Shown: positions 3,417-63,143, counted from the first letter of the stretch. The stretch: 64,000 nt of DNA from Candidatus Bathyarchaeia archaeon (GCA_050012255.1 JBEKHN010000001.1:224001-288000); one strand, 5' to 3'. Program-made: numbers and translations. Notes: generated by a model from the sequence alone, not told the origin.

Positions 3417-3689
3417 TTTAGCCTAGGAACCCAGTTATTTAAAGCTAGCCAACTTTTCTGGTTGGTCTGTGTTTCTGGATTAAACGTAAAAAAAGAGGAG
3501 TTTAAGCCTTCCGCACCGCTATGCTGCCGTCGCTGTTCTTCTCCATTCGTAGAGACGTTCCGCACGTCCCGCGCGCGAATCTTCGTGCGTTGCTGCGCAC
3601 ACTGTAAAACAACTACCAAACGAATAGAAGATTTCTCCACAAACCTTATCATTCCGTTAAACCAAACGTGATTAGGAGAAGGGGGAGGA

Positions 3690-4286
3690 GTGAGTACTAG
3701 CAAGATTCGCTGTAGTGCTCTTTTGCTTGTCTTTGTAATTCTGGTTTCAACCGTTTGTTTGCCTGTAACTGCTGCAAGCGCTACGGTGCAAAATATCGCT
3801 GTTACGAAGCTTATCGACGAACCCTACTATAAGAAGACATTGTTTGTAATAACAACTGACCAGACGACTTATCACATAATGGTTGAGGCCAACATCACAA
3901 CAGCGGGTAACGAGACTCTAATACAGCTCAGTGCAACCCTTTACAACCCGCAGAATGAGACAATCACAGCTTCTGCCCAAATACCTGACACTCTGACGGA
4001 TGCTCCTTATTACAGTGGACCGGTAGAAGCTTTTCACCTACACCTCGAAAAGTGGGTAGTTGATTTACTAAAATTCTGGCTTCCCATCGTCATAGTGGTG
4101 GCGCTCGTTGCTCAGGTTATTCTCATAGTTGAAGGCTATATCACGCAACCAGTTCTGGAACCTTTGAAAACGGTCCTTTTTGGCGGGCCTTTCATATACG
4201 CTTCCTTGCCGCAGGTTCTGTTGACACTGTTGCAAGACACAAACATATCAGACGGTTCATATGTATGTTCCTTATTGGCCACCTAG
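3690..4286 (+). CDS. Secreted/membrane protein; probably the N-terminal half of a frameshifted PKD surface-protein gene
   Basis: Signal peptide and internal TM segment; overlaps the next ORF by 26 bp in another frame. Confidence 0.6.
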   Translation: MSTSKIRCSALLLVFVILVSTVCLPVTAASATVQNIAVTKLIDEPYYKKTLFVITTDQTTYHIMVEANITTAGNETLIQLSATLYNPQNETITASAQIPDTLTDAPYYSGPVEAFHLHLEKWVVDLLKFWLPIVIVVALVAQVILIVEGYITQPVLEPLKTVLFGGPFIYASLPQVLLTLLQDTNISDGSYVCSLLAT

Positions 4287-5751
4287 CCCTCATATCAATT
4301 TGATTCTGCAAAAATGTTACTTCATAGCCACAAGCTTGAACTGGTGGAGAATAAAGGAACAGGAAGTATATACTGACATACCTATTCCTTTCGACGGTGT
4401 CTGGCACATCGTATGGTTTACCTACTTTGTTGCTAAGTGGTGGAGTTCACGTCAACAATCTATTCCGCTACCGCCGACTGCTGAATTCGTGTGGAGACCA
4501 AACCAACCTGTCGTGAACGAAAATGTAAGTTTCACATCGACTAGTTTCGCTCCAAATGGAACGATTACAACTTATCAATGGTGGCTCGGAGATGGAAATC
4601 AAAAAACAGATATGAACTTCACGTATGTTTACAACAGTGCTGGCAACTACAACGTAACGCTAAAAGTGACAGATAACAATGGCCTTACTGGCAACGTTAC
4701 TCACACGGTAAGCGTGCAACCTTCAGTCGCAGCAACCTTGAGAGTTATTCCAGACCACTTACAGGTAAGCGTGCAAATAGGACAAAATGCAACTGCACAG
4801 TTTCTAGTAGGAGAAACTCTTAACCGATCGGACTTACTCGGTGTGAATTTCAAGGCATTTGATTTATCGAAAACTTTCGAGAATCAGATAATCTCTTCTG
4901 GGAACGTGACCTTCAATAGGAATGGGATTAATGTGACGAAAGGAACCTATACGAATGTGACTGCAACGTTCCAAGCACCGTCAGATTCATCATTAGGGTG
5001 GTATTCTGGAAACATTACAGCCACAAGCACAAACGGAGGAAACAGCACAATCTTTGCTGACTTATTCGTTTATGGTCCACCTGTTGCAAACTTCACTTGG
5101 AATCCACTAACACCAAAAGTCGGAGAAGTGGCAACATTTGACGCGGCATCATCAATACCTAGCGGTGGTTCCATCGTGGATTACGAATGGAACTTTGGAG
5201 ACGGTCACACGGCATCTGGACAAACAACAGTGCACACTTATACAACTGCAACAATCTACACGGTAACACTAAACGTTACAGATAGCAATGGTCTGTGGAA
5301 CACTACGCAAGAGCAAGTGCAAGTAGTCCAGCCACACGGTCCAAAAGCAGAATTTACTGTAGTTCCTGAAACCGCAAGTATCGGCCAACTCGTGAAGTTT
5401 GATGCTACAAGTTCTCAGCCAGGATGGAATGGCACGAACCAAATGCCAATTACCAAATACAGTTGGGACTTCGGAGACGGAAACAATACTAACACAACCG
5501 CTCCGATAATATCTCACTCCTTCAGTAGTTCAGGGATATATTACCCAACTCTGACCGTCTACGCAAGCGGAGCTACACCAGAAACCGACACGATAACACA
5601 GAGAGTGCTCATCATTTCAACACCGGTTGGAGGCTACTCAGTTTCTATAAAAGGATACAACACGGCGTTGCCATCGTCTTTCTATCTCGCAACATTAATA
5701 CTGCTATCAGCCGTTTTCACAGGAATCAGACGCAAGAGACGAAGGAAATAA
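4261..5751 (+). CDS. PKD-repeat cell-surface protein with C-terminal TM anchor
   Basis: Three PKD repeats (YQWWLGDG, YEWNFGDG, YSWDFGDG); PVGG motif, TM helix and RRKRRRK tail; many N-x-S/T sequons. Confidence 0.88.
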   Translation: MYVPYWPPSPHINLILQKCYFIATSLNWWRIKEQEVYTDIPIPFDGVWHIVWFTYFVAKWWSSRQQSIPLPPTAEFVWRPNQPVVNENVSFTSTSFAPNGTITTYQWWLGDGNQKTDMNFTYVYNSAGNYNVTLKVTDNNGLTGNVTHTVSVQPSVAATLRVIPDHLQVSVQIGQNATAQFLVGETLNRSDLLGVNFKAFDLSKTFENQIISSGNVTFNRNGINVTKGTYTNVTATFQAPSDSSLGWYSGNITATSTNGGNSTIFADLFVYGPPVANFTWNPLTPKVGEVATFDAASSIPSGGSIVDYEWNFGDGHTASGQTTVHTYTTATIYTVTLNVTDSNGLWNTTQEQVQVVQPHGPKAEFTVVPETASIGQLVKFDATSSQPGWNGTNQMPITKYSWDFGDGNNTNTTAPIISHSFSSSGIYYPTLTVYASGATPETDTITQRVLIISTPVGGYSVSIKGYNTALPSSFYLATLILLSAVFTGIRRKRRRK

Positions 5752-6135
5752 TACAAGCTCAAACGGTCAAGATGCTTCTTGACCACTTGTTCCGTCGCGC
5801 CCGCGCTTTTGCCACAAGAGGCGCACATTGAGTTCGCGCGCGCGATGCCTACGTCAAAGAGATAATGGCCGCGGGGTTGGATAAGCTTACGAACCTGATA
5901 AGGATCTGCGGTTTCTTGATGCAGAAAGGTGTACCTTTTCTGGAGAAAAGAGAATCGACTCTTCTTTCCAAGATTCTCGTGAGCTTTCCATAACTGGTTT
6001 TCAATTTTCATGTTAAAACTGCCTGGCCTGCGTGGACTTCGCTTATTTACGACGTTTTTTCTCTCTTAGTCGAAAGCTTTCGAAGCTGGCAAACGTACAT
6101 AGGTTTGAAGAATCAAGATTCATCCGCGTGATAGT

Positions 6136-6504
6136 ATGAGCAAGTCAGTTGGAAAAAACTCAACGGGCCCCGAGGCGGGTTATGAGAACCGCTTCATGGC
6201 TTTGGAAGAGATTGAATTGCTTCTTAGATCCAGACACGTAAAGCTGGAAGATTTGTTTGATGTTCTAGGGAATTCAGATGATGGCTGCCTGGATTTCAAC
6301 ATTGGAGACATTGCAATCCAGTTTGTGCGCGGTTTTGGTGTTTGGTCTGATAGAAGAGACGTGATTCAAGTAACAGCTGAGCTGCTAGCCACAGCCAAGA
6401 AAGGCAATGTAAGTGAAATGGTGGGCTATGAATATACATTTGATGAGCTCAGAAGATTGCGTTCGGAGAAACTCGCAAAGATTGAATGTTCAGGAGAAGA
6501 GTGA
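6136..6504 (+). CDS. Hypothetical protein, first gene of a coupled three-gene operon
   Basis: 122-aa ORF whose TGA directly abuts the next ATG. Confidence 0.6.
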   Translation: MSKSVGKNSTGPEAGYENRFMALEEIELLLRSRHVKLEDLFDVLGNSDDGCLDFNIGDIAIQFVRGFGVWSDRRDVIQVTAELLATAKKGNVSEMVGYEYTFDELRRLRSEKLAKIECSGEE

Positions 6505-6690
6505 ATGAGAGAAAACTACATGGTTGAAAAAGACAAGATTGTCCGTACCAACCCTTTCTGTCCAAGATGCGGCGAAGGAGTCTTCATGGCAGACAAAGGT
6601 GAATGGTGGTCATGTGGAAAATGCGGAGACAGATATAGCAAAAAAACCATTAAAGTTCATAAATACAAAGTGAATACCTGCGGCCAGTGA
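6505..6690 (+). CDS. Ribosomal protein S27ae (eS31)-like zinc-ribbon protein, divergent copy
   Basis: YxVEKDKIVRTNPFCPRCGEGVFMAD...CGKCG matches the S27ae pattern, with KGEWW where HxDRx is usual. Confidence 0.8.
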   Translation: MRENYMVEKDKIVRTNPFCPRCGEGVFMADKGEWWSCGKCGDRYSKKTIKVHKYKVNTCGQ

Positions 6691-7622
6691 GCTTTCAGAA
6701 GGAATATGACTGTATGAAGAACGAATGTAGAAAAGCATTATTGATTACGATAGCAGTTGATACAAGTTCAGCCAAGGGCAAAGGAAAATACGTACCTAAT
6801 TTCAACGGTGGATTTAGAGGACCGTTCTGGGGAAAGGGAGAGGAATTCGAATATATACCCATCCCTGAGACGATGATGGGGCAGCGGTCGGACAAGAAGT
6901 GGGAGTGGAAAGGCAAATATGTCGAAGGCGGGAAAGCCACCTACAAAACTGCACTAGGCAACAGATCAAAGACAAATATCCTCACTTACGTCCCTGCGGA
7001 ACTCCGAGCAAATCTTGAGCACGCAGCAATACATTATGATCCAGATTTCAAGAATCTAACCTACGGGGATGGCAAAAAGGAAACTCCTAGAGGGAAGCAA
7101 TTGGCCAAACTCAACCCAGGTGATCTCTTAGTCTTCTGCCCATCTTTGGAAAACCCTGAGACAAGAGAACCTGACCGTGGTCGTTTCATAATCGGCTCCT
7201 TTACCGTGGAATGTGCCTACGACTTTACAAATGCTGAATTCGAAAAGCGATTCAAATGCACCCGCTCTGATGTTGTTGAGAAATACAAGAATAAGAACGC
7301 GCATTTTTCAGAAGAATTCGCGCGCGCGTGGGATTGTAGTCGGAAAGAGCTTCTCGAGAGCTATGACGACAAAGAAGAAGCAGACCTTGTGCTTGTGGCC
7401 GGCATAGAAAAGGAGAGTGGTCTGTTTGAAAATGCCATCAGGATAACGCGACCGCATGACGGCAAGTATTTTGTCATGCCGAAGGATCTTGTTGGAGATC
7501 TTGGCCTGAAAAAGCCGCCCGGACCGCTAAAATATGAAAGAGGATGGAAGTGGGTGAAAGGCGATCAATATCTTAGAAATCTTCACAATCTGTTGAAGAA
7601 AGGTGGAGACTTCGTCAAATGA
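6687..7622 (+). CDS. Nmad3-like (nucleotide modification associated domain 3) protein
   Basis: DT..GG..GP..FEYIPIPE, HYDPDF..TYGD, LNPGDLLVF, IIGSF and NAH motifs. Confidence 0.75.
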   Translation: MSFQKEYDCMKNECRKALLITIAVDTSSAKGKGKYVPNFNGGFRGPFWGKGEEFEYIPIPETMMGQRSDKKWEWKGKYVEGGKATYKTALGNRSKTNILTYVPAELRANLEHAAIHYDPDFKNLTYGDGKKETPRGKQLAKLNPGDLLVFCPSLENPETREPDRGRFIIGSFTVECAYDFTNAEFEKRFKCTRSDVVEKYKNKNAHFSEEFARAWDCSRKELLESYDDKEEADLVLVAGIEKESGLFENAIRITRPHDGKYFVMPKDLVGDLGLKKPPGPLKYERGWKWVKGDQYLRNLHNLLKKGGDFVK

Positions 7623-7838
7623 TATGTTTAGTCAAACCATTGCGAGGAAGCGCACCTAGGCCCGCAGTCCTGAGTGGAAAAAAGGGATTTGCAGGAGACA
7701 TCACCACCGGCCATGGGGTGCAAACCCTTTGCTGACCATTTTCAGTCCACAGCTGAAGCAGATACAAATCTTGCACGTTGGGCAGTAGTTGGCGCCTTGA
7801 ATACGATTGCCGCACACACCTCTGAGCTTGAGGGAAAT

Positions 7839-8321
7839 TTATCTTCTATGTCCCGCACAATATGGACAACGGTCTATTGATTCATTGTACAAATTACCAC
7901 AGAATTGGCATCTTATTTTCACAATCTCTCTAACGATTTCCGTTTCTCTAACTATTGAACGTTTTTCTTCCAAATCTGCTCTTCCTTCAAAAGCAAGTTT
8001 AGACCAAAACTCTGGCTCATGCTCTATCCCAAGATGTTCTCTACCTTTGCCACCATGACTCTCTTTCTCAAGTTTCGCCCATCTCAAGCCACCAGTGAAG
8101 CCAAAGTAAACGTGCCATGAGGCACCACATCTGGAACAAATTGCATAGTCTTTCCCACCGACACTGTGAACTTTGCATCTGACGGCATTTCCCATGTAGC
8201 ACAATGGGCAGTATCTAAAAAACGTCGAAATAGCTCGTCTCTTCTCCCTTTTTGCTCTTTCCAATGCATAATAACCGTAACTATAACCCATCTTTCTCCT
8301 CCTCAAAAGGAATAGAGTCAA
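7839..8321 (-). CDS. Multi-zinc-ribbon hypothetical protein
   Basis: CPLC/CSRC pair and C-terminal IVKIRCQFCG...CPYCA ribbon. Confidence 0.7.
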   Translation of the reverse strand: MTLFLLRRRKMGYSYGYYALERAKREKRRAISTFFRYCPLCYMGNAVRCKVHSVGGKDYAICSRCGASWHVYFGFTGGLRWAKLEKESHGGKGREHLGIEHEPEFWSKLAFEGRADLEEKRSIVRETEIVREIVKIRCQFCGNLYNESIDRCPYCAGHRR

Positions 8322-8492
8322 ACCAAATTATAAGTTTTGACTATTCAAAGAGCGCGCGCTAAATAGCGCGGTACGTCCCACTTTTTTCCCTGTCTTCGGT
8401 ACTAGATCGCGCGCGCATAAAGATTTAAACTGCACATTCCACAGGCCGTTAGCGGATATGTCTGTTAGAAAACGCCCAGAATACGGGAATAT

Positions 8493-8936
8493 TCAGGTTA
8501 TTGAAGCTATCTTGGGTTCGTACTTCCACGTCGGCGGCAAGAGACCTTCACGCTTGTAATACCTCGAGAGCTTGTGGACCTTCGCTTCAATCAGCTGAAG
8601 CGCCCTTCTGTTGTAAAGGTCGGTCCTGTACTTCTCCAAGTGAAGCCCTAGACTATGAGCCTTCTTAAGCAGACTCGCCAAGTCCTCAGGTAAGGATGGA
8701 GCCAGCTCGTTCTCCCTGAGCACCTTTAACACTCTCTTGCCGGTTATCGGCTTCGACAAGGGAATCGCATGCTGGTCCCTCAGGATCGTCCCTATCCCGC
8801 TCGGTGAATGCCCCTCCTTGCCCAACTTGACGATGAGGGCCTCCACTTCCTCAGGCTGATACTTGCACCAGCTCGGAGCCCGCTTGCCGACAGGCCTCGT
8901 CCCGTGCGACTTTCCCTTTTCCTGCTTGGGCATCAC
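8493..8936 (-). CDS. rps15: 30S ribosomal protein S15 (uS15)
   Basis: GKSHGTRP, SGIGTILRDQHAIP, LPEDL and RLSRYYK-like motifs. Confidence 0.96.
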   Translation of the reverse strand: MMPKQEKGKSHGTRPVGKRAPSWCKYQPEEVEALIVKLGKEGHSPSGIGTILRDQHAIPLSKPITGKRVLKVLRENELAPSLPEDLASLLKKAHSLGLHLEKYRTDLYNRRALQLIEAKVHKLSRYYKREGLLPPTWKYEPKIASIT

Positions 8937-9198: not shown

Positions 9199-9956
9199 TT
9201 GAAAGATTATTCGATTACGTCTCCTGAGCTTCTATTAAATTGTTTTAAGCGACTTGTACCTGTCCCTGAGATAATTGTGATAGCCTCTAAAGGGGAAACA
9301 CAGAAGCTCGCGAATTAACCAATGCTTCCGAGGTTGTTTGGGGCTTTGACCCCCTATACGTAGGAAAGGTCGAAACCAAGAAAATAGGTCTAGTACGCCA
9401 AGAATCTGGAGCATCGGCCACAGCCTTCTTAGTCGAGCATCTTATAGCTTGCGGTGCCAAAGTGATCCTGTTCTCTACTGCTTTAGGCGCCTTTCAGCCG
9501 TATATGAAACCTGGAGACTTCGTTATTCCTTCAAAGATAGTAATAGGTGAAGGAACTTCAAGATACTATTATCCGAGAATAAAGGTGATAAGACCTGATC
9601 TGGAGATCGTGAAGATTCTCAAAGAAGCCTGCAGCAAAATCGGCGTCAAACCCTTTATTGGATCCGTTTGGGATACAGACGCTATCTACAGGGAAATGCG
9701 AGGTCGAATAGAAAAGCTGCAAGCCCAAGGAGTGCTAGGAGTGGAGATGGAATCATCCGCCACATTCACCGTGGCAAAATTTAGGGGAATCAAGGCTGCG
9801 TCCTTGCTTGTGGTTTCTGACAGTCTGGCAAATTTCAAATGGGAATTATACTTCTTAAACGATGGGTACCTAAAAAGCCACTTGGAGACCTCAAGTAAGA
9901 TCATTCTGGAAGCATTGAAAGTCTTAGCACGGGACGACGATGTGACGAATGATTGA
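9199..9956 (+). pseudogene. Nucleoside phosphorylase (PNP/UDP family), frameshifted near 9290-9315
   Basis: AGGTGA SD and TTG 9199 read MKDYSITSPELLLN...KLAN*; the -1 frame continues ...GASATAFLVEHLIACGAK...EGTS...WDTDAIYRE...GVEMES...VVSD. Confidence 0.75.
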
Positions 9957-11387: not shown

Positions 11388-11824
11388 TTTTGGGTTTGGG
11401 GGTAAAGGTTTGTTTCTTTCTGCATATGATTTTTACCGATACAGTCTATCGTTAGCGTTGAATTTTATACTAAGCCCTAGGACGCGGTGTTCCAGAAGTT
11501 AGAACGGTCGCATTAACCATACGCGGGCGGCTTCGTACTAGAAGATTGTCGTGACGATGGCTCCTCAATTCTGGCAATGGAGAGTCCAGAATGTTCCGTT
11601 ACGGTTCTATCTGTGGCTTGTACCAATCGCTGTATTCTGGATTGGACGACTGGAAGAAGGACCAAAGCATCTGAAAGATAGGTGAAAGCGCGCGCTGAGA
11701 AACGACACACATCGTTGCAGCAATGCTCAGAATCATTTCTGCGAAGGCATCGCATAAGAGTCTAAAAAAGGATTGACCCACGAAGTCTGGATGATCGGAT
11801 AAAGTTTTAACCCCAAACCCAAAA
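11388..11824. repeat. 19-bp inverted repeat pair enclosing about 400 bp of decayed sequence
   Basis: TTTTGGGTTTGGGGGTAAA (11388-11406) versus reverse complement of 11806-11824, 18/19 identical. Confidence 0.65.
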
Positions 11825-12039: not shown

Positions 12040-12765
12040 TTAGCGCGCACGTGTTGCTAAGGTATGCTTTCTTCTGTAAATTATGATTGCTAGTAGGGTC
12101 GCTATCATGAATAATGGGAGAATAATGATTGACGTAAATTCTGGTATCCAATCTTGAGTAGAAATTAGGTTTCCCCAACTTGAGGGGTTAATGGGCAGAT
12201 AACTTGCTTCTGGCGGCCAGTAGTGTAAGTTCGGATAGTCCACTGATTCAAGAGCTATTCCAATAGTTTTCAGGACACCAGCAGTTACGTTTAACCTTGA
12301 ATATGTAATGTTGAACTCAGCTTGCCAACCCGTGTTCGTTGAAGACACCAGGGCATTCCATCCGCCAGTCGGAGGAGTAACACCATCCGGAAAATGGATT
12401 TCATTCAGTCCGCCGTTGCGATATGTAGCGAACATGTAGTCATCAGACTTCACAGATGGGCCACCATTATTTTCTAAGTCAAGGTAAATGGCCGCTCCAT
12501 CATAACCCAGACTCACTGAGGCATCTGAAATATTGAAAGCTACGTAGAGACTAGTGCCATCCTGTTTAACAAAAACCGTTGTCTGATTTGAGATGGATGT
12601 CACAGAAGCATCACTCCACTCGCCAACATTAATGATACCGTCAATAGTAGGGGCTGAACCATGGACAGCATCGATTTGATAGGCGGGATTGTAGGCCTCA
12701 ACTCTGATTGTTGCGAAAGCTAAAAAAAGTACTAAAGCAATTGCTGATAGCAGCTTCTTGGTCAT
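12040..12765 (-). CDS. Secreted DOMON/CBM9-like protein with PEF-CTERM sorting signal
   Basis: Signal peptide; PTIDG...GEWSDA, LYVAF and WQAEFNI motifs; IPEF, TM helix and RRK tail. Confidence 0.82.
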   Translation of the reverse strand: MTKKLLSAIALVLFLAFATIRVEAYNPAYQIDAVHGSAPTIDGIINVGEWSDASVTSISNQTTVFVKQDGTSLYVAFNISDASVSLGYDGAAIYLDLENNGGPSVKSDDYMFATYRNGGLNEIHFPDGVTPPTGGWNALVSSTNTGWQAEFNITYSRLNVTAGVLKTIGIALESVDYPNLHYWPPEASYLPINPSSWGNLISTQDWIPEFTSIIILPLFMIATLLAIIIYRRKHTLATRAR

Positions 12766-12834
12766 TTGACATCGCTCTCCATGTTTTCTGTCTCTCCCTT
12801 TTTATAATTTGTGCCCACGTCTAAGCGCGCGCGC

Positions 12835-13528
12835 TTGTTTTGAGCAAAATTGAAGGGCAAAACCAAGTCTTAAAAAAATACGGTTTGAAGCGTCACGACT
12901 TCTCAGTTATGCAAAAAGTGAAAAGTCTTGAAGATGAGGATTCAGCCAAGCTCAGAGTCAGGTTGATGAGTATTGAAGGTCATGCTTCTGACAGATACTT
13001 CAATCAGATATTCGGTTTGATTCCTGAATTGATTAGACCTGAATACAGGAAGACTTTCAAGGCTTATGATGGTTTGAATAACATTTTCAACTTGGCCTAT
13101 GAAATGCTGTCGTGGAAAGTGCATCATGCTTTGATTAAGGCTAAGCTTGAACCCTACCTTGGTTTTCTGCATAGCATTGCTGAGGGTAAGCCTAGTCTAA
13201 TCTGTGACTTCATGGAGCTTTACCGTTATCTTGTTGATGACTTTGTTATTGAGTATTGTCAAAGACTTCAGAAGCGAGACTTCATAATGAAGAATGAGGA
13301 CTTTTCAACGAGCCGAAAGGGAAAGAGGGAATACCTCAACGATTCTCTGACGCACAGTCTAATCAGAGGCTTGAACGAATACTTCCAGACCAAAGTCGGG
13401 ATTCCAGAATTAGAATGGGAAAGGAACAGGAAATTGAGACGTTAATCAATGAAGAGGCTTTGCTGTTGGCTATGTATTTGAGGAATGCAAAGCAAACTTG
13501 GATTCCCAGAATTGCAAACCTTTGCTAG
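12835..13528 (+). pseudogene. cas1: Stand-alone Cas1 (Cas1-solo/casposase-like), 5'-truncated and frameshifted
   Basis: IEG, NNIFNLAY, EPYLGFLH and DFMELYR motifs; frameshift near 13405, other frame continues RIRMGKEQEIETLINEEALLLAMYL...WIPRIANLC*. Confidence 0.85.
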
Positions 13529-13563
13529 AGCTTGGATGTAGGTGTAGTTTAGCGTAGGATAAA

Positions 13564-13824: not shown

Positions 13825-13996
13825 TTCAACACGACGTAGGTAGTAAGTCTAAGTTCAGACATAAGTTTTTGGGCGGTCCCCCTGTCTTTTAAGCCACTCC
13901 ATATCGACACGCTCACACAGTGTGAGAGTGCGGTCACTATGTATAGGTAGGTAGGGTGAGTGAGAGTAAGAGTGATAAGAGGAGTAAGAGTGGCGT

Positions 13997-52469: not shown

Positions 52470-53015
52470 TTAGCCGCTAGCTGCATTTATCAGGGCGATT
52501 TCTGTGATTGCAGATACTAACAATATCAAAGTTACAATGGCGATGAGGACAGCGGCGTTTCTAAGCTCTCTCTTGCCGTAGCCTTGCATGGTCCTTCGAA
52601 TGAGCCAGACGCTTTCTGCTAGGCCTATGGACATCGAGATGTTCTCTAACCAATAGACCGGGATTAGAAAGTATGCGAGGAGAAACAGCAGCGGCGTTAA
52701 TCCCTGTGCCTTCGGAGACATGGAAAATGCGACCAATACGACGCCTGAGCTGTAGCTTGAAAAGAAGCCAAAGATTGGTCCGCCAATGGGCACGAATGTT
52801 GCTAGACAGAGAATGAGGTTGTGTCCGAAGATGTTTTCGACACTGGCTGCGGTCCGCTCCTGATCTATTTCCTGGTTTATACTGTTGGCGTCTTGTTGAC
52901 TTAGGTGCGTCAGAAGTCCTACACCGGTGGCGACCTGCCACAGCAATAGGAAGACCGCGACGGTGATAATGCGCTTCCTTCTTGATGAGGACCCTTTCCA
53001 AAAACTGGGCATCAA
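52470..53015 (-). CDS. SpoIIM-like membrane protein
   Basis: IFGHN, P..WLE and SAITE TM pattern. Confidence 0.75.
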   Translation of the reverse strand: MMPSFWKGSSSRRKRIITVAVFLLLWQVATGVGLLTHLSQQDANSINQEIDQERTAASVENIFGHNLILCLATFVPIGGPIFGFFSSYSSGVVLVAFSMSPKAQGLTPLLFLLAYFLIPVYWLENISMSIGLAESVWLIRRTMQGYGKRELRNAAVLIAIVTLILLVSAITEIALINAASG

Positions 53016-53714
53016 TCACTTTGCCTCCTTTGGGCTTATTCTTAATGCTCTGAAACCCCTTGCCACGGGGTTTAATACTTCTGTGATATTGACCTTTTTG
53101 AGAACTTCTCCTGTGTCCTCCCCGTCACCTCTTACGTCGTGCTCTGCAGGCATCAACGAGTATAGGTAAACGTTGTTTTCCGTTAGCCTTGGCTGGCATC
53201 TGGAAGGTAAACCTAGCAGGACAGTTTGTTTCTCATCGATAGCTCTTGCGCTTGCATAGAGTATCGCGTGTGCGCCCGATGTTAACTCGGCGATCCTTAC
53301 TGGCACGCTTTCTTTGCCTATGGCCAGCATTTCGACCCCGTACTTTTGCATTATTTCGTTGGCGATTTTTCTGAGCCTCGGCAACACCTTCAACAGGTGT
53401 CGTTTGGCATTTGCAGAAATTTTCATGTTGGTGAATTCTATCGGGGAGAGCTGTTCAAGCGTAACCGACCCCAAGGACATGTCGAGGTGCACAACGTCAG
53501 CCTTTGCTTTTGCGATTAGGTCTCTGCAGAGTTCTGCTTCGTGTATTATGACTTCGTGGCCGTTTTCAGCGTTGGCGAAGATGGGTTCGGTCAGAAAAGC
53601 GCTTGCTTCCCTGTATGGTGGGAGGGTCAGGACTGATGCGGCTGCAACGATCGACACCGGTTCAAACTTGTCGTTGAGTATGGCTGCTGAGGAATCTGCT
53701 GCGATTACTCTCAA
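53016..53714 (-). CDS. DUF4152-family conserved archaeal protein
   Basis: VIAADS, DVVHLDMSLG and AIGKESVPVRIAEL motifs. Confidence 0.7.
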   Translation of the reverse strand: MRVIAADSSAAILNDKFEPVSIVAAASVLTLPPYREASAFLTEPIFANAENGHEVIIHEAELCRDLIAKAKADVVHLDMSLGSVTLEQLSPIEFTNMKISANAKRHLLKVLPRLRKIANEIMQKYGVEMLAIGKESVPVRIAELTSGAHAILYASARAIDEKQTVLLGLPSRCQPRLTENNVYLYSLMPAEHDVRGDGEDTGEVLKKVNITEVLNPVARGFRALRISPKEAK

Positions 53715-53753
53715 CCTTTCACCTTGCTTGTCAATTAGCGCGGTGACGAGGAT

Positions 53754-54383
53754 TTATGTTTGCTGTTCTAAGCCTTGCTTCTTTAGGTGTGTTCCCAGAA
53801 TGAACATTTCTGAGCTTTTGGCTCTGCTGGCTTTCGGTTTTACCACGACTATGGTTTCGAAACAGTGTTCCACCTTGTGCACGAAGTCGTCAAGCATGTC
53901 TCCTTGGAAGACCTTGACGAAAAAGTTTCCAGAAGGTCTCAATGTCTGCAGCGCTATTTCGAGTGCGCATTGTGCTAGGTCTATTTGGCGAGCATGGTCA
54001 ACTTCCCATATTCCTGAGATGTTCGAGGAAGCATCGGAGATTATTGCATCGGCTTTTCTTGGGAGCATTTCCAGAATCTGTTGAACTGCTTCTTCTTCTG
54101 TTATGTCGCAAACTATCGTTCTCACGTAGGGTTGTGGAAACGGTTCGATGTGTTTCAGGTCGACGCCTAGGACAAAGCCTTTTTTGCCGACGGTTTTTCG
54201 TGCCGCTTGGATCCAGCCGCCTGGCGCTGCGCCCAGGTCGACGACAACGTCGCCGTACTCTATGAAATGATATTTCCCTATGGCTTCAAAAAGTTTGTAG
54301 GCTGCTCTTGAGCGGTATTTTTCCAGCTTTGCCTTCTTGTAGTAGTAGTCTCTTTTTCTGTCCTGAATCCATGCCTTAGGCAA
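53754..54383 (-). CDS. rlmE: 23S rRNA Um2552 methyltransferase
   Basis: YRSRAAYKL, DLGAAPGGW and KPKASR..SSE motifs. Confidence 0.95.
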   Translation of the reverse strand: MPKAWIQDRKRDYYYKKAKLEKYRSRAAYKLFEAIGKYHFIEYGDVVVDLGAAPGGWIQAARKTVGKKGFVLGVDLKHIEPFPQPYVRTIVCDITEEEAVQQILEMLPRKADAIISDASSNISGIWEVDHARQIDLAQCALEIALQTLRPSGNFFVKVFQGDMLDDFVHKVEHCFETIVVVKPKASRAKSSEMFILGTHLKKQGLEQQT

Positions 54384-54385
54384 GA

Positions 54386-54778
54386 CTAGCTGTCACCAAC
54401 AGCGCCCAGCTCGTCTTGAGAAATATAATGAAGCCACTCTGTGAGCTTTTCACAATCCTGCGGTGAAATGGCACTTGATGGGTCACATCGAGCGTTGTCT
54501 GGGCACATCAAGCATGGGCAGTCAGCTATAGAGTCTATTGATGCTGGCAGCCTTTTGGGAAACAGTCTGTACGTCCATCTTCCCTCTCGGAGTTCTTTCT
54601 CTCTCCGGATGAGTCCTTTGTTCTCGAGTTTAAGGGCTATTCTGGAGCCTTCGCGGCTGCTGGCGTCCAATTCATGCCACAGGTCAGATTGGAGCACACC
54701 CTCAAAGCCTGTGGTCATTATGAACTGCAGAGCCCTTTGCTCCAAGTCATTGCGCTTCGGCATCTTCATCAATTCCAA
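54386..54778 (-). CDS. TFE beta subunit (RPC34-like wHTH plus 4Fe-4S)
   Basis: GVLQSDLW..L..SSREGSR wHTH; CLMC-x5-C-x10-C..L..W cluster motif. Confidence 0.8.
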   Translation of the reverse strand: MELMKMPKRNDLEQRALQFIMTTGFEGVLQSDLWHELDASSREGSRIALKLENKGLIRREKELREGRWTYRLFPKRLPASIDSIADCPCLMCPDNARCDPSSAISPQDCEKLTEWLHYISQDELGAVGDS

Positions 54779-54842
54779 ATCTTCCTCTTTAATATGTGCA
54801 GCTTTTAAATAAAAAGCTGTATGTTTAAGATCGACAAAAACT

Positions 54843-55880
54843 ATGTTGAAAGATGGGAAAATGAAGGATAAGGCACGAAGAGGCTACTGCTTGGGAATCG
54901 AATCAACGGCTGACGACTTCAGCGTTGGTGTGTCGACGTTTGACGGTGAAATACTAGCGAACGCAATAGACGCTTACGTGCCGCCTGAAGGTGGCATCCA
55001 TCCGCGAGAGGCGGCTAGACACCATGCTGATGTGGCGAGTAAAGTTCTCCGAGAGGCTTTCACAAAATCTGGGATAAGGCCAAAAAGCTTGTCTGTCTTG
55101 GCGTTTTCTCAGGGTCCAGGCTTGGGTCCTTGTCTGCGCACTGGAGCGACTGTGGCCCGGGCTTTAGCGTCCTACTTGGGCATTCCGCTTGTGGGAGTAA
55201 ACCACTGCATAGCGCATATTGAGATAGGTAAGCTTAGAGCAGGTGCCAAGAACCCTGTGACACTGTATGTTTCTGGCGGCAACACGATGGTTGCAGCCTT
55301 TGAATCTGGGCGTTACCGAGTTTTCGGCGAGACGCTGGACATTGCTCTCGGAAATTGCCTTGATGTTTTCGCCAGGGAAAGTGGGCTACGTCAAAAGGTA
55401 GGTATGCCGTTTGGTGCTGTGATAGAGAAGCTCGCGTTAGGTGGCAAGAAGTTGATTCCGTTGCCTTACTCGGTCAAGGGCATGGATGTGTCCCTGAGTG
55501 GTCTGTTAACGGCGTCCGTTGCTCTGCTTAAGAAGGGAGACTGCAGGCTTGAGGACCTGTGCTACAGTCTTCAGGAGACGGCTTTTTCAATGGTAACCGA
55601 AGTGACTGAAAGGGCTCTTGCTCACACTGGGAAGGAAGAGCTTCTCTTGACTGGCGGCGTGGCTGCTAACAGAAGGTTGCAGTCAATGATCAGAGCCGTG
55701 GCAGAAGAGCATGGCGTCAAGTTCGAAACGGTGGAGACGCAGTTTGCGGTGGACAACGGCGCGATGATTGCTTGGACTGGGGCTCTTGCTTACAATCACG
55801 GGGTCGTTACGCCGGTGGAGAAGAGTTTTGTCAGGCTGAGGTGGCGCCCTGAAGAGGTTGAAGTTCCGTGGGCAGAGTGA
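54843..55880 (+). CDS. kae1: KEOPS t6A synthase Kae1
   Basis: GIESTA, GGIHP, GPGLGPCL, NHCIAHIE, VSGG and DNGAMIA motifs. Confidence 0.97.
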   Translation: MLKDGKMKDKARRGYCLGIESTADDFSVGVSTFDGEILANAIDAYVPPEGGIHPREAARHHADVASKVLREAFTKSGIRPKSLSVLAFSQGPGLGPCLRTGATVARALASYLGIPLVGVNHCIAHIEIGKLRAGAKNPVTLYVSGGNTMVAAFESGRYRVFGETLDIALGNCLDVFARESGLRQKVGMPFGAVIEKLALGGKKLIPLPYSVKGMDVSLSGLLTASVALLKKGDCRLEDLCYSLQETAFSMVTEVTERALAHTGKEELLLTGGVAANRRLQSMIRAVAEEHGVKFETVETQFAVDNGAMIAWTGALAYNHGVVTPVEKSFVRLRWRPEEVEVPWAE

Positions 55881-56542
55881 GTTCGCCAGTGCTGATCAAG
55901 AAGGGGGCTGAGGCTAACCTTTACCTTGCAGACTGGCATGGCAGAAGGGCAGTGATGAAGAAACGCCTGCGCAAAGAGTACAGACCGTGGAAGCTTGATG
56001 AGCAGATTCGCAAGTACAGAACGGTTCATGAGCCGCAGTTGATGCATGAGGCAAAGAGGGCTGGCGTGCCAACGCCGATGATCTTTCTGGTCGACGTGAA
56101 GAACACGACGATAATCATGGAGTACATCGATGGAAAACAGGTGAAACAGCTGCTGAGTGCGATTTCTGAGGGTGAGAGGCAACGCTTGTGCTTCAGGATT
56201 GGCCAGTTGATAGCGCGGCTTCACGAGTGCGGCTTGATTCATGGCGATTTGACCACGTCGAACATGATTGTGGGTTTGGGGGGAAGGGTTTTCTTCGTGG
56301 ATTTCGGGCTTGGCGACAGGAGCGGGGAGGTTGAGGCGAGGGGGGTTGACCTGCACTTGATGAAGAGGGCCCTTGAAAGTACGCATTACGAATTCGCTGG
56401 GACTTGTTTTGAGTCTGTTTTGGCGGGTTACGGAAGCGTGTTGGGCGCGGGAGCGGTGAAAAGTGTTTTAGATAAAGTCAGGGAAATAGAGAGGAGGGGA
56501 CGCTATGTCGCGGAGAGGAAACAGGAAGAGTCTTCAGTTTAA
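55877..56542 (+). CDS. bud32: KEOPS kinase Bud32
   Basis: KGAEA, HGDLTTSN, DFGL and RRGRY motifs. Confidence 0.95.
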   Translation: MSSPVLIKKGAEANLYLADWHGRRAVMKKRLRKEYRPWKLDEQIRKYRTVHEPQLMHEAKRAGVPTPMIFLVDVKNTTIIMEYIDGKQVKQLLSAISEGERQRLCFRIGQLIARLHECGLIHGDLTTSNMIVGLGGRVFFVDFGLGDRSGEVEARGVDLHLMKRALESTHYEFAGTCFESVLAGYGSVLGAGAVKSVLDKVREIERRGRYVAERKQEESSV

Positions 56543-57110
56543 GGGTCGCGTCATATTCTTTGCAACGAACAACGTTAACAAGTTCGATGAAGCCCGCCAG
56601 GTTCTAGCCGAATACAGCGTGGCGGTTGGCATGCTGAGAGTGAAGTCGCTTGAGATTCAGAGTGAGAGCCTCGAAGAGATTGCTAGGGCAAGCGTTTTGG
56701 ATGCTTTTGAGAAGTGTCGTTTGCCAGTCATGGTGGAGGATGCCGGGTTGTTTATAGACGCTCTGAATGGTTTTCCAGGCCCCTACGCCGCTTACGTGTA
56801 CAAGACTGTTGGAAATCAAGGTCTGTTGAGACTGATGAAGAACGTCAAGGCCAGAAGGGCACGCTTTGAGTCCGCAGTTGCGTACTTCTCAGCGGAGCTA
56901 CAGTCGCCAGTATGTTTTCACGGCGAAGTGATCGGAGAAATAGCGGATGAGGAGAGAAAGGGAAGCGAAAGGTCTGGTTTCGGTTTCGACCCGATCTTCA
57001 AGCCGCTGAATAGCAGTAAGACTTTCGCTGAGATGACCATCGCAGAGAAGAACGAGCATTCACATCGGGCAAGAGCTTTCCGAAAATTCGCAGAGTGGTA
57101 CAAGAGCTAG
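56505..57110 (+). CDS. rdgB: XTP/dITP diphosphatase (Ham1)
   Basis: ATNN..K, EDAGL..LNGFPGPY, GFGFDPIF and SHRARA motifs. Confidence 0.95.
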   Translation: MSRRGNRKSLQFKGRVIFFATNNVNKFDEARQVLAEYSVAVGMLRVKSLEIQSESLEEIARASVLDAFEKCRLPVMVEDAGLFIDALNGFPGPYAAYVYKTVGNQGLLRLMKNVKARRARFESAVAYFSAELQSPVCFHGEVIGEIADEERKGSERSGFGFDPIFKPLNSSKTFAEMTIAEKNEHSHRARAFRKFAEWYKS

Positions 57111-57140
57111 AGTCCTCCAGCCTCAGCCCACGATTGACCA

Positions 57141-57335
57141 GAACGCTACATCCCTGTATTCGCGTTTTGGCCCCGTCTATTCCACCCTCCCCCTCCCCCC
57201 TAGGGTACTAGTACTGCACGTAGGCGCTGGAGAAGGCCCTACTGACTCGGCATGGGCCTGAAGCCGAGTATATGCAGAGGGCTTGGCGGATAGTCACGGC
57301 AAGGGCGGTGACTTTTCAATGCGCTCGACCATCAC
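57141..57335 (-). repeat. Dispersed repeat C, copy 2
   Basis: Reverse complement of 14704-14898. Confidence 0.9.
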
Positions 57336-57560
57336 GCGATCTTCTGGTTCCATCCTTCCTTCACTGAGCTTGCGTGTGCGTTTGTCCTTCCCCTAAGGGC
57401 GTCAGTCCTCATAACAGGTATAGGCTTGACTTTCTTTGAACTGAGAAATTGAGGCTTGAGCACTTTGCAGCAGTGATTCTCGCCCGGTCTCGAACGTTAA
57501 GCTTAGACAGTAAAAGAGAAAGAGTTTCGAAAGAGCCCGCCCGCCACTTTCATGCTTGCC

Positions 57561-57765
57561 GCGCGCTAGCGTGTTCCTAAATTCTTTTGGGAAGTAGCTT
57601 GTACTGCTTATTCTGCTCTTCAACCATATTTGGGTCATGTAGAATACCCTGAGGGGGGAGGGTGTGAGCACGCAAGCACGCAGCTTGAACCGTGACAGTA
57701 ATCGTCGACCATGGGAAAACGCCATGCCTCCCTCTTGAGCATAATTTAGGAACAAGCACGCGCGC
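57561..57765 (-). mobile_element. MITE-like element family A, copy 2
   Basis: GCGCGCTAGCGTGTTCCTAAATT ... AATTTAGGAACAAGCACGCGCGC; homologous to 26246-26450. Confidence 0.82.
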
Positions 57766-57934
57766 TAATACCCAAAGTTTAAAACCAGTCTTTTGCAGAG
57801 TAGCATCTATAGCGCATGCTAAGACATACAAAGGAACTAACCCCACTGGGCCTAATGGTGAAATGGATGCGTAAAGGGTTGTTAGCGTTAGGAACGCGCG
57901 CGTGCTTATGGCAGAAAGACATGTCTGGAACAGA

Positions 57935-58232
57935 GCGCGCATGCCTGTTCCGAAAATGGTTAAAAATGGTCTTAATTCGCCTTTTGCGATTTAGAGGCAT
58001 TTTTGGGCTTCGCGTCTGTCTTCGTGCTTCTTTCAGTGCCCACGCTTCTCGAAATGTGCGGGCAGCCCGAAGGTGTTGGCCTGTGCGCTGTGATCCACTT
58101 ATCGTCAACACCCATGATTTTCCATCCTCACCACGGCTGAGACTGGCCTATCAGAGAAGCCCGAATCGGACGCAAAAAGGCAAAAGAAGAATAAAAACCA
58201 TTTTTGACCAATTTAGGAACACGCATGCGCGC
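57935..58232. mobile_element. MITE-like element family B with about 50-bp imperfect TIRs
   Basis: GCGCGCATGCCTGTTCCGAAAATGGTTAAAAATGGT... versus reverse complement of right end GCGCGCATGCGTGTTCCTAAATTGGTCAAAAATGGT... Confidence 0.82.
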
Positions 58233-58254
58233 TACTGTAAAGGAGGATGTATCT

Positions 58255-58827
58255 TTGAAGGACGTTGAGTTGAAGCTTATTTCTGAACTTATGAAGAACA
58301 GTCGCAGAAGCGACAGAGACTTGGCTAAAGCAATAGGAGTTTCTCAACCCACCGTATCGAGGATGATCAAAAAGCTGGAGAAAGAGGGCGTCATAAGGGA
58401 ATACACGATGATCCCTGATTTTAGCAAACTCGGATTCGAACTAATGTCTTTGGTAACCACAAAGGAGAATAGATTGCTCAGCGAAGAAGAAACTGAAGAA
58501 GCATGGAAGAAAGCTCGTGAAATGGCGAAGAAAATGCCCACGCCATTCCTTTTCGTCCTAAGCACTAAACCCTCAGCCGCTGACACAACCGCTCTTGCTT
58601 TGCACGAAAACTACTCGGATTACATCACATATATTAAGGGAATCAGGGAAAATCCGCTCGTAGGTATTGATGGTGTTGCGGGTTTCATCGCAGAGACGAA
58701 ACTCAAGAATCATTTTGTTCCCTTGACTCTATCTGAAGTGGCGAACTTCATAAAGAGAAGAGGACTAGCGAACAAGACCAAGAGCGTCCCCACAATCAAA
58801 GCAGGCAAGAGGGCAAAGGCTCCCTGA
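58255..58827 (+). CDS. Lrp/AsnC-family transcriptional regulator
   Basis: GGAGG SD; LISELMKNSRRSDRDLAKAIGVSQPTVSR HTH; IPDFSKLGF. Confidence 0.88.
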   Translation: MKDVELKLISELMKNSRRSDRDLAKAIGVSQPTVSRMIKKLEKEGVIREYTMIPDFSKLGFELMSLVTTKENRLLSEEETEEAWKKAREMAKKMPTPFLFVLSTKPSAADTTALALHENYSDYITYIKGIRENPLVGIDGVAGFIAETKLKNHFVPLTLSEVANFIKRRGLANKTKSVPTIKAGKRAKAP

Positions 58828-58902
58828 CTACAGAGGTCTGGGCAGAAAGCGCGAAGGCAATAACTAAGGTTTCTGCGTGTTCAAAGTGTCTTGGGGTTTT
58901 GA

Positions 58903-58928
58903 AGATAAAACTTTACCCCAACCAACCA
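58903..58928 (-). repeat. Dispersed repeat D, copy 2
   Basis: Exact reverse complement of 13997-14022. Confidence 0.85.
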
Positions 58929-59232
58929 TAACGACACCCTAGTTGGAAGAATTGGGGACCTAACAGAGGCGCGCGCGCTATCGCTGTGGCCGAAAAGGTG
59001 CTAAACCATGTCCAAATGTTGTTTCCCGGTTTGGAAAGCAAGACGGTGAAATCAAAGTTACCTTCAATTTCGCCGGTTGATTAGAAAGTGTGAAAAGGAA
59101 TGACAAGGAACGGTGAGCATCATAACTGTGTACCTCTTATTCCTGAGCGCGCGCAAACTAAATGTGAAACCACTGCAACAATACTGTTGGGTGAGCTTTG
59201 CGAAGGCAAGAAGAAACGAGACCGTCTAAAGG

Positions 59233-59421
59233 GCGCATGCGTGTTCCCAAAACGTTGAAAATGGTGTTTGTTCCTCTTTCATGATTTGATGGCAGTTTTG
59301 GGCCGCATATCTGTTCTGCGGGCGTGTTTGGGCGGAAATCCTATGCCTCTTATCATCCCTCAACACGGCCAAGAGTAGCCTATCAAACAAACCTGCACCA
59401 GACCCAGACAGGCAAAAGCAA
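59233..59421 (+). mobile_element. Degenerate, internally deleted copy of MITE family B
   Basis: GCGCATGCGTGTTCCCAAAACGTTGAAAATGGT left end; CACGGC..GAG..GCCTATCA...AGGCAAAAG block shared with 58130-58190. Confidence 0.65.
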
Positions 59422-59531
59422 GCGACTCACGAAGCAAAGGGTAAGCAACAATCTATCGGTAGTAGGACTTTCCTGCAATAGAGGTAGTCAACGCGGCTTA
59501 CAAGAATGAGAGTACGGTAAGAGTTATCTTC

Positions 59532-61708: not shown

Positions 61709-61870
61709 ATACTATTTCAACTCCTGATATGCTGCTGTGCAAAAATCGCTTCTTACACGCTGCGCTAAGATTCGCGTCGGGGCTTATAAACAGAGCACCC
61801 TCAAATCGAGAAGTTATACATGTTTAAGAGCGAGACATGCGTTAGAAGGGTGTTGCAGTGGGGTATGCTT

Positions 61871-62140
61871 ATGTCTCAACCTGTTTATGGAACAATAGTG
61901 AACTATCGAATAGGCATCAGAACACAGATGCCAAAATGGTGCCTCATCCAAATCATGGGTGAAAATACAGTATCTAACGCAGGCCAGCTAGTTGGGCGAA
62001 AAATGATCTTGAAATTCGGAAAGAAAAGCTTCATCGGCAGAATCATGGACTTGCACGGCAAGAAAGGCGTTGTCAAAGTCAAATTCCGCGAAGGCGTACC
62101 TGGACAAGCACTAGGGGCAAGAGTCGAACTGCTTGGCTAG
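61871..62140 (+). CDS. rpl35ae: 50S ribosomal protein L35Ae (eL33)
   Basis: G.IVNYR.G..TQ, LVGRK and GRI...HG..GVV.VKF...VPGQALG motifs. Confidence 0.9.
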   Translation: MSQPVYGTIVNYRIGIRTQMPKWCLIQIMGENTVSNAGQLVGRKMILKFGKKSFIGRIMDLHGKKGVVKVKFREGVPGQALGARVELLG

Positions 62141-62453
62141 CGCGCGCCTTGCATTAAACTTGCTTGTTTCCGTTTGAACGTAAAGTACGCTTCTTAGACT
62201 AGAGCACGGGCCCTTTCCCCAGCACCATATGGCGTGCTGACACCATAGTGGCGATATCTCCCGCCAATCCCTCTTTTTTATACCACACGCACGCTCCACA
62301 TTAGCGCCCGCGACGACTTCAATAACTATAGACAGGTATGCCTAGCAGCTAAGCTATATAAGTGATGTTGAGAATATTGAGATGCACATTCCAGATCTAT
62401 TATTTTAGCGATAGATTTGTCGAGTGAAAAAAAGCAGAGTGGAAACAAGCTAG

Positions 62454-63143
62454 ATGGCTAAGCAGATTTGGAGAGCTAGAGGCAGGCCTCTTAACAGCAT
62501 GCCTTCATACAAAGATGGAAGGATTCTGGAGAACCTTGCCAGAATCGCGATGCAGCATAAGGTTGATTCGAGTGAATTCTTCAATCGCGTTGTCGAAGCT
62601 TGGAATCACGACGGGTCAGAATGTGCGCAGTTGGCTATAAAATGTCGTAAGAAGACGAAAAATTCAGCGATTTTTCTCTTTACCAACGGTCGGAAGCGCG
62701 CGCGGAAGGTTATAGCTCAATTTCCGATATCGATTGCCATCTTGCAAGGAAAGAATCAGCTCGAAAGCTACACAGAAACAATTTTGGCCAGAACTTCCTC
62801 AGTCAAGAATTTCGAGGGGGTAACCTCGAAGATTGGTAACTTGAAAGTCGGAATGAGAAAAGTCAGCCTGAAAGCAGAAGTGCTCGAGATTCCAGAATCT
62901 AAAATCGTCTACACGAGATATGGAACGACGGCTTGTATATCAAATGCACTTATCAAAGACGAAACTGGTTCAATGAAAATGAGTTTATGGAACCACCAGA
63001 TCAGCATGGTGCATAAGGGCGACGTAGTTGACATCAAAAATGGCAAAGTAACCTGGTTCAGCGGCGAAAGGCAGTTGCGACTGGGGAGAAGCGGAAGCTT
63101 AAGCGTCATCGAATGCGCGCGCACTATAAGAAGTGATTTTTAA
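62454..63143 (+). CDS. OB-fold ssDNA/RNA-binding protein, paralog of 59943-60587
   Basis: IGNLKVGMRKVSLKAEVLEIP, VYTRYG and DETG..KMSLWN motifs. Confidence 0.85.
   Translation: MAKQIWRARGRPLNSMPSYKDGRILENLARIAMQHKVDSSEFFNRVVEAWNHDGSECAQLAIKCRKKTKNSAIFLFTNGRKRARKVIAQFPISIAILQGKNQLESYTETILARTSSVKNFEGVTSKIGNLKVGMRKVSLKAEVLEIPESKIVYTRYGTTACISNALIKDETGSMKMSLWNHQISMVHKGDVVDIKNGKVTWFSGERQLRLGRSGSLSVIECARTIRSDF

Follow-up and report, generated by a model that had tools for sequence, protein, structure and literature searches.

Perfectly alternating CG runs of 8-10 nt recur through a 64,000-nt stretch (hereafter, the window) of contig C1 of a Candidatus Bathyarchaeia archaeon (JBEKHN010000001.1:224001-288000), and they raise the question of what writes so short a word so often, and at which places. 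The source genome (G000) is a metagenome-assembled genome (MAG) of 38 contigs, 2.35 Mb and 48% G+C, and its genes are those of an archaeon (RecJ of the archaeal type, HdrA2, and a TrpB-like enzyme). The organism is present in communities of peat, sediment, and wetland. A sequence-only reading of the window had proposed that the runs act as an insertion target, excision scar, or recombination point for gene cassettes, and had compared them to the highly iterated palindrome HIP1. This guess was largely right as to the marking of junctions and the link to a mobile element, and failed in the likeness to HIP1. The explanation to which we incline, with modest confidence, is that the (CG)4-5 runs are the attachment-site residue (empty sites) of one genus-confined IS5-family transposon.

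The window contains 38 alternating CG runs of at least 6 nt, 15 of which are 8-10 nt long. All 15 are where the sequence-only reading had placed them, the last starting at 63115 rather than 63116. In 100 Markov simulations of the window, order 1 gave a mean of 1.09 runs of at least 8 nt and never more than 4, and order 3 a mean of 1.95 and never more than 6; an order-5 simulation gave 10.4, which is high because a model of that order already contains the motif. The two core blocks described as free of such runs (15-26 and 48.4-57 kb) lie in run-free intervals (12835-26441 and 41150-57894) that are syntenic blocks common to G000 and its nearest complete relative, G001. The sites named for a link to stop codons and gene brackets are 6- and 7-mers, and their adjacency to stops is explained by a preferred TA flank (TA-G reads TAG), not by gene ends.

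Across G000 we counted 393 alternating CG runs of at least 8 nt (hereafter, runs). The length distribution (6 nt, n = 517; 7 nt, n = 171; 8 nt, n = 201; 9 nt, n = 123; 10 nt, n = 63; at least 11 nt, n = 6) has a bump at 8-10 nt, and AT, AC, GT, AG, and CT alternations decay smoothly with length and have no such bump. The octamer GCGCGCGC is the commonest in the genome, its 434 sites comparing with 27, 25, and 31 expected under Markov orders 1, 2, and 3, respectively, and thus its enrichment survives Markov correction genome-wide; GCGC and CGCG themselves are at expectation. Position -1 of the runs is preferentially A (64-81%) and position -2, less strongly, T; the opposite flank mirrors this, and no signal lies beyond -2. 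A run is not the core of a longer repeat, given that only 20 of about 780 flanks of 200 nt fell into five run-anchored families by BLAST.

To relate the runs to genome rearrangement, the whole chromosome of G001 (2,346,764 bp, ~93% identical) was aligned to G000. In G000, 59 of the 393 runs were at most 5 nt from the end of an alignment block, compared with 2.3% of 20,000 random intergenic positions, and 306 were in DNA unaligned to G001 (52% of controls). The reciprocal comparison gave the same picture, with 86 of the 455 G001 runs at most 5 nt from a block end (0.7% of random positions) and 353 in unaligned DNA (38% of random positions). The predicted overlap with synteny breakpoints was thus found in both directions, and it supports the statement that the runs mark junctions of conserved and variable DNA. 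A run was present at just 69 of 946 block ends, so most breakpoints are unmarked. Colinear junctions between the two genomes numbered 246, with 118 clean indels (a gap of at most 30 nt in the short allele and at least 40 nt in the long allele). Replaced segments numbered 122, and a run of at least 6 nt was within about 10 nt of 52 of their 244 boundaries, usually in one genome only.

Octamers such as TAGGAACA were over-represented as well, and their contexts revealed a recurrent element end, i.e., an A/T-rich stretch, TTTAGGAACA, any nucleotide, GC, AT or TA, and then GCGCGC, with the sequence beyond the hexamer unique to each copy. A search that allowed up to three mismatches found 122 ends matching TTTAGGAACA-N-GC-NN-GCGCGC in G000. 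Inward-facing pairs of these ends included 33 of 162-310 bp, in several size classes, plus one of 1085 bp and one of 1620 bp. The copies have terminal inverted repeats (TIRs) in common and are usually laid out as TA-GCGCGC-(inverted repeat ... inverted repeat)-GCGCGC-TA. Where CG abuts the inverted repeat, its run measured exactly 6 nt at 77 of 90 CG-flanked ends in G000 and 44 of 55 in G001, and the outer flank was TA at 48 and NA at 77 of the 90. The 1085-bp pair (G000 C24:15248-16332) encloses fragments of DUF772 (E = 1.7e-9) and DDE_Tnp_1 (E = 8.4e-12), and a 1119-bp copy (G001:1671432-1672550) carries both domains in overlapping open reading frames (ORFs) of 116 and 217 aa, both being above Pfam cut-offs in copies from the two genomes. 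In G003, uninterrupted frames of ~330 aa match the transposase; the one examined (332 aa) is flanked by CGCGCGC and GCGCGCGC.

On these domains and ends, the family can be assigned to the IS5-family insertion sequences, as an element of ~1.1 kb with DUF772 and DDE_Tnp_1, accompanied by miniature inverted-repeat transposable elements (MITEs) and at least one cargo derivative. The short copies are non-coding and multi-copy, have the ends of the autonomous element, and differ in presence or absence between relatives, all of which is as in known IS5-family elements and their MITEs. Targets of the IS5 group are short A/T-containing words such as YTAR or TNA. The copies described here differ in being bracketed by an alternating GC hexamer and in having the commonest octamer of the genome as their empty site. 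As the flanks (GCGCGC, TA) are palindromic, a target duplication and an extension of the TIR look the same, and hexamers carried by the element are not separable from hexamers duplicated from the target; the copy at C14:45899 is consistent with a duplication of 4 bp, unlike six mutated copies.

Orthologous sites with and without the element connect it to the runs. Among 82 paired elements in G000 and G001 together, 17 had an alignable orthologous site and 8 of these were polymorphic, the empty alleles being (GC)4 (n = 1), GCGCACGC (n = 2), a 7-mer (n = 1), GCACC, GC, nothing, and a 23-nt remnant. The MITE at 57935-58232 of the window was absent in Logan contigs of two studies, where the joint 57938>58230, with an extra A, reads GCGC-A-CGC (X2, depth 4.76, side 88; X5, depth 6.05, side 67; contigs only). 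Three MITE-empty alleles have the form GCGCACGC (window 57938/58230, G000 C12:25828, and the G000 orthologue of G001:256990), in which the middle CpG is altered, always on one and the same strand with respect to the flanks. This form was considered as a specific product and rejected, as its genome-wide count (107) is like those of other CpG-transition variants (123 and 91).

Two further loci are informative about order. At C3:43050, G000 has a MITE, G001 and G010 have TA-GCGCGCGC-TA, and G007 has an 8-nt decayed copy. At C2:86881 the site is (GC)4 in G000 and G007 but holds a 1750-bp insert in G001; this insert includes the inverted repeat and codes for a MEDS/HTH protein and a small zinc-finger-like one. 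Both loci read as insertion into an existing run because G000 and G001 are the closest pair by identity, a four-taxon argument that is unsafe in that pairwise identities are not tree-like across loci and repeated loss is possible at both.

The runs also stand at deletions. In 42 of the 118 clean indels the short allele carries a run, of at least 8 nt in 28 and a 6- or 7-mer in 14. The long allele (80-3700 bp) has no inverted repeat or run at its ends in 29 of these 42, and the run in those indels is filler, typically of 6-12 nt, sometimes with 1-4 nt of flanking G/C. Three of the deletions, all in G001 and all with a run in the short allele, could be polarised. At C8:12774-16064, G003 and G009 run through the long allele past both boundaries, and in G004 separate matches span the two. 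The long allele is also contiguous in G007 and G009 at C5:91746-92036, and in G003 at C5:96966-98439, where G009 spans the left boundary. As these are more distant congeners, the run is new in the G001 deletions, and the GC filler of the derived short alleles was not present in the ancestor. At C8:12774-16064, G007 has its own (GC)4 with the right endpoint as in G001 and the left endpoint ~100 nt away, which suggests repeated one-sided loss from the same point.

Such fillers invite the main rival explanation, in which a transposon-independent process writes the runs, either end joining or break repair with GC filler or a nuclease or recombinase acting on (GC)4, and the IS5-like element merely prefers palindromes as targets. 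We regard this as possible, although doubtful. It is consistent with pure GC fillers of 6-12 nt at deletion junctions (some of them polarised) whose ancestor had neither a GC repeat nor an element, with the 2-4 nt of GC microhomology at several junctions, with three run-rich genomes (G009, G008, and G004) that are nearly free of recognisable element ends, and with C3:43050 and C2:86881, where the ranking of identities makes the element appear to have come second, at a (GC)4 already in place. The analysis yielded no candidate enzyme for such a process, and the (T)A...T(A) flank is the same for solo runs and element brackets, as expected from one reaction. The remaining 76 of the 118 clean indels have no run and look ordinary (29 lack any filler, and one examined used a GTCGAC repeat), and so a general repair pathway does not mark all events.

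For the direction of most events, the chemistry, and the route to the deletion scars under the transposon explanation, we infer the following. The element would land, sometimes at a break or deletion junction, and its later loss, with or without neighbouring DNA, would leave joined GC half-sites, such that, where the element is absent, a single (GC)4, a (GC)5, or a version with point mutations would stand for its two hexamers. The chemistry may be a 4-bp GCGC duplication or the retention of four terminal bases from each end. The scar would again be a preferred landing site, and with sites re-used in this way, runs and elements would be expected to accumulate in variable DNA, to split islands into gene-sized modules, and to sit at synteny breaks, until point mutation, mostly by CpG transitions, erodes the runs. 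Deletion scars would arise in two steps, by landing of the element at a break or deletion and its subsequent loss.

Several observations weigh against this explanation. Three of the empty MITE sites (GCACC, GC, and nothing) have no 8-mer, and the 29 long alleles with neither repeat nor run at their ends oblige it to assume a second, unobserved step. Only 2 of 49 alignable runs were inserted with no other loss. Polarity also varies: at C6:52178, G000 has 1011 bp where A-GCGCGCGC stands in both G001 and G007, and at C19:4135 the 2.6 kb of G000 is missing from the outgroup G003 as well, neither of which suits a simple deletion. Slippage collapse of two 6-nt repeats predicts 6-mers, and the excess is at 8 nt. 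In the run-poor G017, a related element has inverted hexamers of the GCGTGC type, compatible with either origin, carried or duplicated. The transposase query had no match in G008, G004, G002, G005, and G010 (MAGs, in which repeats assemble poorly), and G009, G008, and G004 have 359, 254, and 128 GCGCGCGC sites but 2, 2, and 1 copies of the hexamer-plus-repeat composite.

Simpler versions of the same idea were rejected. A GCGC target duplication, of which excision leaves two copies, fits the 6 + 6 brackets and the 8-mer and is incomplete, as the ancestors of deletion scars had no GCGC. Composite excision between two elements fails as a full account on the same deletion scars, which have GC filler where the ancestor had no GCGC. 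Recombination between two pre-existing runs does not agree with long alleles that have no runs at their ends.

The taxonomic range of the runs is that of the element only in part. GCGCGCGC was found in all ten other species of the genus at 29-464 sites, roughly tracking assembly size (464 in the closed genome G001). In other genera of the family and order, 26 of the 30 genomes had at most 14 sites; the exceptions were G032 (227 sites), G018 (53), G027 (30), and G039 (19). The hexamer-plus-repeat composite was detected in nine of the ten congeners and in three of the 30 other relatives at 1-2 copies each, which parallels the run counts. Transposase query matches were obtained in six of the 11 genomes of the genus, plus distant homologues in five run-poor genomes. 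The co-distributed transposase that the sequence-only reading had suggested looking for does therefore co-occur with the runs, its co-distribution being partial.

The same comparison bears on whether the runs are a HIP1-like signature, produced by a methyltransferase, mismatch-repair bias, or chromosome-wide selection. HIP1 (GCGATCGC) of cyanobacteria is likewise a hyper-abundant 8-nt palindrome in a GC...GC frame. It is 15- to 300-fold over-represented (available part of PMC5861425); it is linked with the methyltransferases DmtA and DmtC and described as spaced quasi-periodically and conserved throughout the genome (available part of PMC13756078). The run octamer resembles it in being the commonest of G000 at ~14- to 17-fold enrichment. 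Its decay is dominated by CpG transitions, which could hint at cytosine methylation: run substitutions between G000 and G001 are often of this kind, several runs have at least three changes, and single-transition forms of the octamer are 1.5-2x commoner genome-wide than transversion forms.

Placement and turnover of the runs differ from those of HIP1. With crude gene calls (2193 ORFs covering 80% of G000), 329 of the 393 runs (~84%) were non-genic, i.e., in the ~20% of the genome outside gene calls, 57 were genic, and 7 were at gene edges. They are clustered, with 145 gaps of <1 kb between neighbouring runs vs 55 expected, and reach densities of ~10 per 10 kb in small contigs and at the ends of contigs. 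The aligned blocks contain 49 runs, of which 20 remain 8 nt or longer in G001, 8 are 6- or 7-mers, 19 are substituted without a change of length, and 2 are opposite gaps, a retention that is not above the neutral rate at ~93% identity. Also against such a signature, neither GCGC nor CGCG is enriched, and the C5 methyltransferase family PF00145, searched for across the 11 genomes of the genus, turned up in just two of them, G000 and G007; as far as C5 enzymes go, the methyltransferase that the sequence-only reading had named as a possible partner does not track the runs, none being found in G001 despite its many sites. No mention of GCGCGC was found in the available part of a HIP review (PMC4390886). 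Non-genic, clustered, poorly conserved, and linked to a transposon, the runs are very unlikely to be a HIP1-like signature. The two C5 methyltransferase genes of G000 are at C7:4931-5887 and C6:37304-38281 and were not found in G001 by Pfam search.

Equally, we give very little credence to a cis-acting signal selected for its own function, be it as terminator, promoter, regulator site, uptake sequence, or Z-DNA switch. The mostly intergenic placement is what such a signal would predict, and the TA flank gives stop codons on both strands. However, tandem, divergent, and convergent spacers are struck in proportion to their length (158, 81, and 71 runs in 213,617, 122,365, and 87,644 bp, respectively), and the runs lie at widely scattered distances from gene ends (median 149 nt from a stop, 224 nt from a start). 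These spacer statistics and distances led us to reject a terminator or promoter role. The runs are moreover poorly conserved and concentrated in DNA that relatives lack.

In the window, the association with variable DNA is seen in the accessory island between recJ and rpS15 (Table 1). The island has (T)AAAG duplicated at both ends and is cut into modules by the runs at 3570, 5835, 7319, 8352, and 8408, the last of which abuts the right junction. In G007, G003, G009, and G004, recJ and rpS15 are neighbours across one uninterrupted short spacer. G001 has its insertion at the same point and matches G000 over ~48 nt at the left; the two then part exactly at a CGCGCGC run of G001, beyond which lie 6.1 kb of different DNA. 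Elsewhere in the window, the 1078 bp before 27525 are replaced in G001 by 1066 bp of unrelated DNA, and homology to G007 stops 6 nt after the 7-mer at 14388.

Islands of this kind resemble integron arrays in that gene-sized modules are separated by a short recombination site at hot spots and vary between relatives. They differ in having no 60-140 bp attC-like element, which the absence of a conserved flank beyond 2 nt around the runs excludes, in a site of only 8-10 nt, and in the associated enzyme, which is a transposase. A stronger claim would be a transposase-based cassette system in which (GC)4 is an 8-bp attachment site where gene-sized modules are inserted, exchanged, and deleted. We consider such a system unlikely. 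It might then be an archaeal functional analogue of the integron, each event writing or consuming a readable GC scar and the scars forming a natural barcode that records structural change, a comparison that we put forward only tentatively. It is likewise a speculative thought that the runs, and not the elements, are the persistent part, still abundant where element copies are almost gone.

Footprints left by the transposon, as we prefer to read the runs, have relatives among known systems. Cut-and-paste transposons (Tc1/mariner, hAT, and piggyBac) leave short palindromic residues of the target duplication and/or terminal bases at the donor site, and these footprints are known mainly from eukaryotes with end joining. 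The case described here differs in its archaeal host, in a constant residue, usually with a loss of 80-3700 bp, and in the apparent re-use of the residue as a target. Repetitive extragenic palindromes (REPs) are longer imperfect hairpins with conserved sequence that are served by a tyrosine (HUH) transposase. In REPs and REPINs, too, short extragenic palindromes are over-represented and a transposase accounts for their abundance (available parts of PMC3116915 and PMC3337134). The runs differ from the REP/RAYT system in a unit of 8-10 nt, in having no conserved flank beyond 2 nt, and in a transposase of the DDE type. In E. coli, movement of IS5 is reported to have been coupled to a large deletion (available part of PMC11708052), a precedent for landing of the element at a break or deletion. 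Our limited literature search, in sources available in part, found no element with a (GC)n site and no account of the motif in archaea.

If the transposon explanation holds, the novelty lies in a GC-palindrome site and a constant scar, in what is otherwise a known kind of IS5-family transposon with its MITEs. One 8-nt word would then locate several hundred past gain, loss, and replacement events per genome, and the tempo and hot spots of genome flux would become countable in an uncultured, globally common archaeal group. A DDE transposon with a GC-palindrome site, whose constant scar is coupled to kilobase deletions, was not met for prokaryotes in the same limited search of partly available sources. 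A hyper-abundant palindrome, in addition, need not be a methylation or repair signature like HIP1.

Table 1 Alternating CG runs, element copies, and the accessory island of the window (positions counted from its first nucleotide)
Feature	Position	Context
Accessory island, 4.97 kb	3445-8417	between recJ (1953-3416, minus) and rpS15 (8493-8936, minus)
CGCGCGCG run, 8 nt	3570-3577	in the 5-kb recJ/rpS15 island
(CG)5 run, 10 nt	5835-5844	between island modules, in DNA not alignable to G001
(CG)5 run, 10 nt	7319-7328	inside Nmad3-domain ORF 6687-7622
GCGCGCGC run, 8 nt	8352-8359	flanks A and TA
CGCGCGCGC run, 9 nt	8408-8416	right end of the island, 1 nt before G001/G007 synteny resumes (8418)
GCGCGCGC run, 8 nt	11688-11695	G007:C5 homology (11552-11686, 93%) ends 1 nt before
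6- and 7-mers tied to stops or brackets by the sequence-only reading	12043-12048, 26246-26251, 27525-27530 (in CTAGCGCGCTAG), 14046-14051, 14388-14394	
(GC)5 run, 10 nt	12825-12834	5 nt upstream of the cas1 ORF that has no N-terminus
202-bp MITE bracketed by GCGCGC	26246-26447	accounts for the 6-mer at 26246 and the run at 26442
9-nt run	26442-26450	extended right-hand hexamer of the MITE at 26246-26447; G001 synteny breaks inside the run
GCGCGC within CTAGCGCGCTAG	27525-27530	G001 synteny resumes exactly here; G001 has GCGCGCGC at the same point
CGCGCGCG run, 8 nt	41142-41149	inside a conserved block, also in G001
205-bp MITE, hexamer plus TIR at both ends	57561-57765	accounts for the 7-mers at 57560 and 57759
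CGCGCGCG run, 8 nt	57895-57902	directly 3' of a TAGGAAC half-TIR, with which it looks like a solo element end
298-bp MITE, ~44-nt inverted repeats, GCGCGC brackets	57935-58232	
(GC)5 run, 10 nt	58969-58978	MITE-rich variable stretch 57129-59519
GCGCGCGC run, 8 nt	59147-59154	variable stretch 57129-59519; a degenerate TIR end follows at 59231
GCGCGCGC run, 8 nt	62140-62147	overlaps the stop codon of ORF 61820-62140; 6-mer in G001
GCGCGCGCG run, 9 nt	62696-62704	inside ORF 62454-63143; 7-mer in G001
GCGCGCGC run, 8 nt	63115-63122	kept in G001

Other features of the window were recorded alongside. The cas1 ORF (12840-13445) covers positions 107-279 of the 283 of the Pfam Cas1 profile; a Cas1 homologue is similarly short at another locus in G001, and there are copies in G007, G004, and G009. 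The ORF of a PNP_UDP_1 phosphorylase (9462-9953; profile positions 73-202 of 233) is probably truncated. A low-GC island (41453-48313, 37-42% G+C) is 6.9 kb long vs 5.3 kb in G001, has no GC run at its borders, and encodes a 1038-aa protein with weak matches to BREX/MADS-type adenine methyltransferases. At 54805-54815, an additional ~10 kb is present in G001, with no GC run at that point in G000.

Repeats of ~190-200 bp at 14695-14900 and 57137-57335 belong to a second family, not related to the GC-bracketed MITEs, of which G000, G001, G007, and G010 have many copies (77-90% identity). The octamers CCCTAGGG, GGGGGAGG/CCTCCCCC, and GTACTAGT are over-represented after high-order Markov correction and occur together at 57180-57215, beside this family. 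Rfam and tRNA searches of the window gave no matches. Two conserved elements of ~80-100 nt (11460-11564 and 12064-12148), with no Rfam match at the gathering threshold, are present in several congeners and in other genera (G018 and G020) at 73-87% identity.

Outside the window, three large variable segments of G000 (C7:14562-32508, C15:50144-58435, and C13:34158-34773) lie against tRNA-like 3' ends, each of which recurs at the opposite border, suggesting integrated elements. In the first of them, GCGCGCGC is located 2 nt after the tRNA-like repeat.

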